Origin: Girardia tigrina
Taxonomy: Eukaryota
DNA: 56,968 nt
Assembly: GCA_001938485.1 (NCBI GenBank)
Contig: MQRK01255142.1
Coordinates: forward strand, 1-56,968
Direction: 5' to 3'
The number at the start of each line of letters is the position of its first letter. Position 1 is the stretch's first letter. The translations under genes were made by a program, and so were the position numbers. Shown here one piece after another: positions 38,665 to 39,964 of the stretch. A model generated the notes under the pieces. The model was not told where the DNA came from, ran no database searches, and saw only the letters and a list, made by a program, of their open reading frames with translations.

Positions 38665-38784
38665 GTTGTTAATAAATAAAAGTTTCAAATATGTCTTTCT
38701 GAATTTTCATTAGAACAGATCCACGAACCTAATAGTGCACAAATTTAATTGTCATGGGTATAAAAACTGGTACATTGAAGAGAT

Positions 38785-38883
38785 GGGGACCTGTTACTTT
38801 GGTAACCTGTATTAAGCCAGTCGGACATACCCCCACGTGGTGTCCCTGGGAAACTAGAGTTCGCTCTAGGCTAAAGTGTCCGA
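38785..38883 (+). ncRNA. HDV-like self-cleaving ribozyme
   Basis: P1 ggggac/gtccct (G-U at +1). J1/2 hairpin gttac-tttg-gtaac. P2 tcggacat/gtgtccga. P3 acc/ggt. L3 cccacgt. P1.1 cc/gg. P4 ctagag-ttcg-ctctag. J4/2 gCtaaa with the catalytic C at 38871. Confidence 0.88.
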
Positions 38884-39132
38884 AGCTTGCCTCGTTGGGG
38901 TGCTGACCAACATAGTACGGAGGGCGAGGATCTGCAATCCACCTCTTTGAAAGGCGATGCTATCTGAGCGGGATCGTGGAAACGTCGAAAGGCGGGGCCC
39001 ATGATAAGTTGAGGGGTGACACCCAATGATACAACCGACTCAGCTCCTCATAGACTCTCTGAGTCATTATCACGGGTAAGAGCCGCATGAATTCTATCCA
39101 GGTTCGTGTGCTGCCACCGTGGGGAGGAGGCC
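38785..39132 (+). mobile_element. 348-bp non-coding, ribozyme-headed non-autonomous retroelement (SIDE/SINE-like)
   Basis: GC-rich island bounded by the perfect 14-bp direct repeat tacattgaagagat (38771-38784, 39133-39146). Its first base is G+1 of an HDV-like fold. Confidence 0.88.
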
Positions 39133-39964
39133 TACATTGAAGAGATAAATTGCCATTTGAAGACACGATTTAGTAAATATTCACAGTCAAGTAATCATCA
39201 ATTTCAAAATGCGATATTTTCCTTCAAACGAATTTTGATTGTACTTATGAGAGGTTGTATTGTGAGTCATTGCTAATCAGAAATAAAACTCATTGGTTTT
39301 TAACCGAAATTTGAAACACAAATTAGCATCATACAACAAAACCAAATTTGAATACAAATAATTCTAAAAGGGTTTCTTTATGCTTTAATACTTTTAAGTA
39401 ATTTATTTTCTCAAAACAAGATAATTAATTGCTGATGAGGATCATTAAGGATAAAAGTTTGTTATACGATCATTGTTTTTTAAATATGCTTTATCAAGTT
39501 GTTATTATGTTTAATAAAATAGGTTTAAGTTTACCAATCGCATAGATTATTGAAAATTATGCAAAAAAATATTGAAAAAGAGCATAAACTAGGACTGCTT
39601 CGGGGACACATTACAAATACAATTTGCTGGCTGATCATCTATTTTTTAAGTATAAACTGTAATGAAAATTAACTCAATATAGTTTAAAACAAACCCTCCT
39701 TTTTCCCAATAAGTTTATTAATTTAAATAATATACAAACATATTTTGCACACTTTAAAATTTGTCAAAGAGTTTCATATTATTTATCCGAATTAATTAAA
39801 CAAATAAAAAATTCAAGTTAATGAGATGGATGACTTTGCTGTTGTTGAACAAGTATATCAATATCGGGTTCAATGGAAGAGATGCAATGCTTAGTGCATT
39901 TCCAATGTGTCTGTCTGTAATCTCTGTTCTATCTCTTTTTGTGTTTGCTTCATTCTTGAAAATA

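Follow-up and report, generated by a model that had tools for sequence, protein, structure and literature searches.

A short non-coding retroelement with a predicted HDV-like ribozyme head shares target preferences with its likely RTE-like LINE partners in Girardia tigrina

How a short sequence with no evident coding capacity comes to be mobilised, and what determines where it inserts, are questions raised by a GC-rich stretch in the genome of G. tigrina. This stretch (38785-39132; 54% GC vs 21-27% in its flanks) lies within a window of 56,968 nucleotides, which is the whole piece of DNA analyzed here (contig MQRK01255142.1). The initial annotation of the window had described a 348-bp non-coding retroelement that begins at an HDV-like ribozyme cleavage site and is moved by a LINE partner.

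A dispersed repeat with a ribozyme-like head

Our analysis confirmed that positions 38785-39132 are one copy of a non-coding repeat family bounded by a 14-bp target site duplication (TSD). The flanking 14-mers (38771-38784 and 39133-39146) are identical, which has a chance of about 1.4e-8 of occurring at one given place, and the longest ATG-initiated frames in the element encode 17 (plus strand) and 43 (minus strand) amino acids, with no ORF identified; the description of a 348-bp non-coding element was thus upheld. The element is short, non-coding, dispersed and TSD-flanked, the features that characterize SINEs, and we refer to it as a SINE in this sense. Its features are listed in Table 1. 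Elsewhere in the window we observed a broken mariner (Mos1-type) transposase about 1 kb 3' of the SINE (40104-41164, minus strand), fragments of a BEL/Pao LTR retrotransposon with aspartyl protease and Peptidase_A17 domains (47926-50127, plus strand), and a paired-box/HTH frame that is probably a Tc1-type transposase fragment (27456-27983, plus strand).

Table 1. Features of the SINE copy and of its insertion site (window coordinates).
Feature	Position	Strand	Basis or remark
Upstream target half, decayed Penelope-like GIY-YIG stretch, reads KFNCHGYKNW-YIEE	38727..38783	+	nhmmer E 2.1e-6; blastn 86%/43 nt
Target motif RGTGT-N9-TAC, one mismatch	38757..38773	+	Motif matrix comparison
5' TSD, 14 bp	38771..38784	+	Last T may be ribozyme +1
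P1 5' strand, giving 7 bp with T38784 as +1 and 6 bp with G38785	38784..38790	+	Helix comparison across families
J1/2 hairpin (5-bp stem, 4-nt loop), missing in LINE ribozymes	38793..38806	+	Read from sequence; conserved in family alignments
HDV-like core: P2, P3, L3, P1 3' strand, P1.1, P4, catalytic C	38821..38883	+	Homologous to LINE-B2/B/A 5' ends
P2	38821-28/38876-83	+	Present in window copy
P3	38829-31/38839-41	+	Present in window copy
L3	38832-38	+	Private C at 38832
P1 3' strand	from 38842	+	Present in window copy
P4 with UUCG loop	38854-69	+	UUCG not kept across subfamilies
Catalytic C in J4/2	C38871	+	Kept in 22/24 copies and in LINE-A, -B, -B2 and -F heads
Non-coding hairpin body, variable between subfamilies, some two-sided changes	38884..39120	+	No match in the LINE UTRs sampled
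3' terminal purine motif ending GGAGGCC-TAC, like LINE termini GGGAGGCC-CAC	39121..39135	+	Without poly(A) or microsatellite
3' TSD	39133..39146	+	First 3 nt common to element end
Downstream target half, reads YIEEINCHLKTR; intact copies YIGETNRHLKTR	39133..39292	+	Translation; nhmmer 39195-39292 E 0.024, weak

A genome search returned 1561 candidate copies, and the best 40, which were scored, are 89-100% identical to the query and mostly full length, as expected of a full-length repeat with shared termini; an exact 35-nt core of the SINE occurs 130 times. The window copy diverges by 2.6% from the majority sequence (2.6-8.7% for the 23 other aligned copies) and has no non-self match above 95% identity among the scored copies, so that its description as young holds in a relative sense. 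One head is common to several subfamilies of about 290-355 nt, each with a different 3' part, and two-sided changes affect 6 of the 76 predicted pairs of the body hairpins. TSDs are 11-14 bp long in 22 of the 26 dispersed SINE copies measured (in the list of SINE copies, L037 is the sister element E3, and L019 and L020 possibly represent a single insertion). In 21-22 of 24 copies the 3' end is followed by TAC regardless of the flank, indicating that the 3' end of the element and the TSD overlap and that TAC is common to both. The end assigned at 39132 therefore agrees with the shared termini, with the qualification that TAC 39133-39135 belongs to element and target alike.

We also observed sister non-coding elements with the same ribozyme, named E2, E3 and E4 (L209:310-580, 4457-4872 and 4881 on; L137; L138; L063); E2 and E3 are about 270-430 nt long, and E2 matches the 3' end of LINE-A (E 0.002-0.003). 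A 382-amino acid TRAF-like frame with zf-TRAF and MATH domains starts just 3' of another SINE copy (L026:1022-2167). Four contig-only RNA runs contained relatives of the SINE family without 5' ends, and the searches of viral contigs and phage records yielded no relative and no match, respectively.

Every helix of the nested double pseudoknot (P1, P1.1, P2, P3 and P4) predicted by the initial annotation forms in the window copy around C38871. When the SINE is compared with three sister elements and with the heads of five LINEs, P1, P3, P1.1 and P2 change on both sides yet stay paired, as in P1 (CAGGGAT/ATCCCTG to CGGGGAT/ATCCCCG), P3 (ACC/GGT to ACT/AGT) and P1.1 (CC/GG to CT/AG); the set compared (S, E2, E4 and LINE heads) consists of related sequences chosen by eye, and the comparison is one of inspection rather than of statistics. 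An Rfam scan of the window gave no match at gathering level: the best match of the element, to HDV-F-prausnitzii, is weak (17.8 bits vs a gathering score of 44; E 0.71), which is the outcome of the proposed check against HDV-like models. The whole-element fold is no better than that of shuffled sequences (z = -0.26), a comparison that leaves pseudoknots out of the model and is uninformative for one. Since the Rfam and fold scores are weak, support for the ribozyme rests on covariation across related elements. The UUCG loop of P4, also pointed out initially, is present in the window copy and is not conserved across subfamilies.

The window copy carries a private substitution in L3. The first base of this loop is T in 23 of 24 aligned copies, and also in 43 contigs of run X1; the U20-G25 pair of L3, present in those 23 family copies, is absent from the window copy, where C38832 replaces its U. 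In the antigenomic HDV ribozyme, four substitutions of the L3 U-G pair are described as keeping activity, and C23/G28 is not among these (PMC3386971); the weight of the L3 G is borne out in a second source (PMC13635239). It is thus probable that C38832 impairs the ribozyme of the window copy, and a cleavage result obtained from this copy by itself would probably mislead about the family.

The position of the cut may differ by one base from that proposed. With G38785 as +1, P1 has 6 bp with a G-U pair at +1; with T38784, it has 7 bp starting U-G, G-U. In the CAGGGAC subset and in E2/E4, P1 consists of 7 Watson-Crick pairs from a C. This C precedes 5 of 5 A-starting copies, in three of which it lies outside the TSD, and only 2 of 38 G-starting copies, suggesting that A-starting copies and E2/E4 are cut one base earlier. 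GGGGAC is preceded by T in 28 of 38 copies. It should be noted that this T is insufficient as proof of a +1 U, because LINE TSDs also end in T (6 of 12). The cut in the window copy may therefore lie one base upstream of G38785: the claim that the element begins at G+1 stands to within one base, and a 7-bp P1 needs T38784 as +1. In addition, RNAalifold predicted, in nearly all 20 copies of alignment A3, a pairing between the 5' ACCUG and a CGGGU of the body (columns 6-10 with 299-303); such a pairing would rival P1 and might influence cleavage.

Candidate partner LINEs

To look for a mobilizing partner, LINEs of the same genome were compared with the SINE. LINE-A (1585 candidates) is 3.8-4.0 kb long and has one APE-RT ORF with C-terminal zinc fingers (the intact natural protein on record, P0001, has 1145 amino acids). 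Its 5' end is an HDV-like ribozyme of its own, and its 3' end, GGGAGGCC-CAC, lies directly on the target without a tail. LINE-B (4139 candidates) has the same ribozyme start and tailless end, and a 3' microsatellite tail is absent from both. A protein search yielded further LINE families (best 49 of 23868 candidates scored, 30 loci), none of which has the body of the SINE.

The SINE profile matches the ribozymes of LINE-B2 (E 4.7e-7), LINE-B (E 4.4e-5) and LINE-A (E 0.005), in the core only. With nhmmer, the SINE body and 3' part had no match in the sampled LINE UTRs, about 10 terminal nt being alike by eye. Searches with the 5' 106 nt (best 40 of 1399 scored, 30 loci) and the 3' 76 nt (best 40 of 112 scored, 30 loci) of the SINE recovered only SINE copies. 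An autonomous LINE sharing its 5' 100 nt and 3' 40 nt with the SINE, for which the initial annotation had suggested a search, was thus found neither by its ends nor by protein, and since none of the sampled LINEs matches the body or 3' part beyond the terminal nucleotides, the searches yielded no direct parent. At one locus (L014:632-1856; G000:C250688), a single TSD encloses the first 853 nt of LINE-A and, fused to them, SINE nt 5-351; this chimera could have arisen by template switching or by a deletion within a tandem LINE and SINE array.

A quickly built tree of 73 RT rows, in which all homologs were unlabelled, groups the RTs of this genome's LINEs in a single branch (SH-aLRT 99), and two to three C-terminal C2H2 motifs are present in the database members of that branch. 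The partner LINEs have a single ORF with N-terminal APE and RT, without ORF1 and without RNase H, the combination that defines the RTE clade, and the nearest relatives outside the LINE branch presumably end like canonical RTEs, judging by motifs. Partners of the SINE are thus likely to be RTE-like single-ORF APE-RT LINEs with C-terminal C2H2 fingers, a homologous ribozyme head and a GGAGGC-YAC terminus. The suggestion of a LINE partner, possibly an RTE, gains from the presence of such LINEs in the same genome.

Three further observations concern LINEs. LINE-C (P0003-like; L197-L207, L317-L320) has very long UTRs with sequence common to E4 and to the 5' region of LINE-D. The head ribozyme of LINE-D (L228:774-830) has a 7-bp P1 only with the letters GGGAT, which are also the end of the duplication at the 28S site described below; many R2 ribozymes are reported to use 28S sequence in P1 (PMC3774820). 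Finally, a metagenome locus (L255:1040-1094) has a weak twister-P1 match (E 0.0015, below gathering) 5' of a distant RTE-like ORF.

A shared target motif and two hot spots

The SINE and the LINEs prefer a common target motif, RGTGT-N9-TAC. At 34 dispersed sites, the bases upstream of the TSD are G at -13 (25 sites), T at -12 (24), G at -11 (26), T at -10 (24), A at -8 (27) and T at -1 (29); Penelope-like, rDNA and tandem sites were removed from this set, and the TAC columns are partly imposed by the filter. The same pattern is found in the SINE and LINE sites taken separately (26 and 15 sites). As 37 of 51 SINE heads lie at dispersed sites, targeting is a preference and is not strict.

The first hot spot lies in a repeat with at least 2257 candidate copies. 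This repeat combines RT and GIY-YIG domains in one element (RVT_1, E 2e-4; GIY-YIG, E 0.003-0.025; all below Pfam cut-offs), and GIY-YIG is annotated on 12-15% of the members of its Atlas neighbours (0.97); on this domain content, we classify it as a Penelope-like element. The insertion base is the Tyr codon of the YIG motif in its predicted nuclease. Penelope flanks accompany 10 of 51 SINE heads and 16-17 of 28 LINE-A heads (17 by score and 16 on inspection, L101 not being Penelope), vs 3 of 2887 random flanks. When target copies were picked by their downstream sequence, 9 of 30 (query included) were occupied at the same base, by at least four families. Exact counts in the genome gave 640 empty sites vs 315 LINE-end junctions, and 5 exact S1/S2-Penelope junctions vs the 130 exact SINE cores, in patterns so strict that decayed sites such as that of the window are missed. 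By an nhmmer profile built from 11 uninterrupted target copies, which matches the upstream half and, weakly, the downstream half, and by the translation of the downstream half (Table 1), the window copy reads as an insertion into an old, decayed Penelope-like copy. The insertion initially described is indeed TSD-flanked, and both the sequence targeting and the decayed GIY-YIG target had been missed. Two other Penelope-like GIY-YIG remnants in the window (13884-13985, minus strand; 11767-11833, plus strand) belong to another subfamily and have empty YIG sites.

The second hot spot is one nucleotide in 28S rDNA (Rfam LSU position 2824/2825). All ten exact 28S sites in the assembly continue in non-rRNA sequence, a proportion that overstates occupancy because intact rDNA units probably collapsed in the assembly. 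The 28S arrays comprise S1, S2, S3, E2 and several LINEs, with the regenerated duplication between the units; at L202, L321, L209, L037 and L227-L236, LINEs and SINEs of different kinds were observed in tandem at this one base. Several heads start with GGGAT or CAGGGAT, the letters that end the 28S duplication, and we hypothesize that these starts derive from 28S sequence. In metagenome loci of relatives, most of them short or from distant RTEs, 28S flanks were found in 0 of 80. Overlap with the present 28S site is conceivable for the RT elements of Anopheles, whose insertions lie downstream of R1, and likewise for sites in a large survey of site-preferring retrotransposons that reportedly appeared in 2025.

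Proposed mechanism and alternative explanations

At the sequence level, the SINE and the LINEs have in common the motif, the TSD length, the tandem arrays and the two hot spots. Taken together, we consider it probable that the element is a non-autonomous ribozyme-headed retroelement, comparable in type to SIDEs or bipartite RTEs and not to Pol III SINEs, that is mobilized by LINEs to motif sites. Read-through transcription of an rRNA unit, a tandem LINE lying upstream, a Penelope element or a host gene would extend into the SINE, and its HDV-like ribozyme, predicted from structure and covariation, would free the RNA's 5' end by cutting. The shared signatures suggest that the APE-RT protein of an RTE-like LINE would then nick RGTGT-N9-^TAC, that reverse transcription would be primed at the terminal TAC of the element, which matches the target, and that a second nick, mostly 11-14 nt further on, would generate the TSD. 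The window copy would have inserted in an old Penelope copy and then probably lost cleavage.

A broader proposal, which we put forward tentatively as plausible and somewhat short of probable, is that an RTE-related lineage with C2H2 fingers represents a third sequence-targeting APE group after R1 and Tx1. This lineage would have begun at an unreported 28S site and relaxed to GTGT-N9-TAC; it would now interrupt about one third of the well-preserved Penelope copies at the YIG Tyr codon, and would carry ribozyme-headed SINEs that need little beyond the ribozyme plus roughly 10 nt of terminal motif. We hypothesize that the C-terminal zinc fingers take part in site choice.

It is possible, if doubtful, that zinc-finger recognition plays no role and that both hot spots reflect a loose RTE-type nick preference, combined with priming microhomology, at abundant good matches. 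The matrix built from dispersed sites alone gives 12.8 bits to the Penelope site and 17.7 bits to the 28S site, and the published RTE signature (Nishiyama and Ohshima, 2018; PMC6007223), as far as described there, shares with our elements T-starting TSDs of about 10-14 bp, an upstream signal some 10 nt from the TSD and a 3' end that matches the TSD start. However, the matrix predicts a Penelope share of 0.7-9% (for 2257-30000 copies), vs the 20% of SINE and 57-61% of LINE-A heads observed, and the RTE signature is a T stretch (PMC6007223), whereas the elements described here show GTGT followed by an A run, and single-nucleotide hot spots.

The mobilizer could also be a relative that went unsampled or is extinct, or else a LINE of the Ingi/Vingi type, rather than LINE-A, -B or -D. 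The lack of UTR homology to the sampled LINEs would fit such a source, as would the scope of the LINE sampling (the 49 protein candidates scored) and the bipartite elements that Ingi and Vingi are described to generate (PMC5786205). We regard it as unlikely, given that motif, TSD length, terminus and arrays are common with LINE-A, -B and -D, that the ribozyme core is homologous, and that a LINE-A chimera exists at L014.

That the element is a Pol III SINE, with internal A and B boxes setting the 5' end and the ribozyme fold as a relic of LINE origin, appears very unlikely. An A-box-like word (element nt 29, two mismatches) and a B-box-like word (nt 94, one mismatch) are present, S1-S3 have no T4 run, and in the sisters E2b and E4 the P4 loop contains a 9-nt word that matches the B box exactly, possibly a promoter overlapping the ribozyme. 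Nevertheless, both look-alikes in the SINE overlap P2 strands, the A-like word lies about 28 nt from the 5' end, and the S copies differ freely in the P4 loop but hardly at all in the catalytic core. A tRNA scan of the element gave no match, and Rfam, tRNA scan and box search revealed no head of tRNA, 5S or 7SL type bearing A and B boxes; the element sequence contains neither a poly(A) nor a T4 run. The earlier statement that there is no convincing ORF, Pol III box or poly(A) tail was borne out in these searches.

Passenger amplification, in which a few insertions were copied along with the abundant Penelope repeat in the absence of targeting, is hardly credible, since at least five different families occupy the same base, the 5' junctions differ in length and added bases, the occupied LINE-A copies are scattered on their (poorly resolved) tree (9 changes vs 8.8 when shuffled), the same motif recurs at 34 unrelated sites and in 28S, and an active ribozyme would cut the passenger RNA.

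If the preferred reading of a LINE-mobilized, motif-directed element is correct, a compact RTE-like protein with a conserved 28S site and a trans cargo of about 350 nt makes C-terminal zinc-finger specificity testable for an APE element, and the cargo also bears on how little RNA a LINE protein needs. In addition, repeated insertion in the nuclease motif of another element would be a clean case of a transposon disabling a transposon.

Comparison with known systems

Among APE elements, sequence-specific retrotransposons are assigned to the R1 and Tx1 clades (PMC4640811). As in these clades, an APE nuclease, insertion in rRNA genes or transposons, and tandem arrays are found here; unlike them, the LINEs described here have one ORF for an RTE-like protein whose C-terminal part carries C2H2 fingers, and show a relaxed preference with many dispersed sites. 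Within the sources cited, the target-specific ribozyme-bearing clades are given as R1, R2 and R4, not RTE (PMC5786205), and RTE-1, which serves as a tool for gene insertion, is classed as random (PMC13708176). NeSL-clade families occur at 28S in a flatworm (PMC5035012) and use a different nuclease (PMC4640811). No 28S- or Penelope-targeted RTE was found in the literature searched, which left out Repbase and most subscription papers.

Ribozymes have been reported in RTEs and some SINEs (PMC6765202), and the trypanosome NARTc and RIME elements (PMC3383444, PMC4035085, PMC6765202) are, like the SINE, dispersed, non-autonomous and equipped with an HDV-like head in common with a LINE. As described in these sources, they differ in belonging to the Ingi clade, in that their Pr77 doubles as a promoter, and in having a head nearly identical to that of the partner, whereas here the core alone is homologous.

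Bipartite derivatives are known for RTE, Ingi, Vingi and R2, and several RTEs are predicted to carry a ribozyme at the extreme 5' end (PMC5786205). The SINE resembles the bipartite RTEs (RTE-N, RTESINE and Bov-A; Kojima, 2018; PMC5786205) in having the extreme 5' end of a LINE and no small-RNA head. In contrast to the bipartite RTEs of that account, it has no LINE 3' UTR beyond about 10 nt and no microsatellite tail, and shows a strong target bias.

The SIDEs of R2 and the R2/R1 hybrid SIDEs (Eickbush and Eickbush, 2012; PMC3414825) are among the closest parallels: like the SINE, they are short and non-coding, have a 5' HDV-like ribozyme and no Pol III promoter, and lie in 28S rDNA; an APE partner gives the hybrid SIDEs TSDs of 14 bp, the length also seen in the window copy. 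SIDEs are described there as rare and present only at R1/R2 sites, whereas the SINE family is dispersed, with at least 130 and probably more than 1000 copies, and uses LSU 2824/2825 and the Penelope site with RTE-like partners. Judged by its sequence features, the element would therefore act like a SIDE or a bipartite RTE that lacks 3'-UTR homology, and would not be a Pol III SINE. Ribozyme-headed non-autonomous elements were already known; what is new is the GTGT-N9-TAC targeting shared by SINE and LINEs, and the ribozyme-headed class is widened beyond rare SIDEs bound to rDNA by a dispersed family that comprises several subfamilies.
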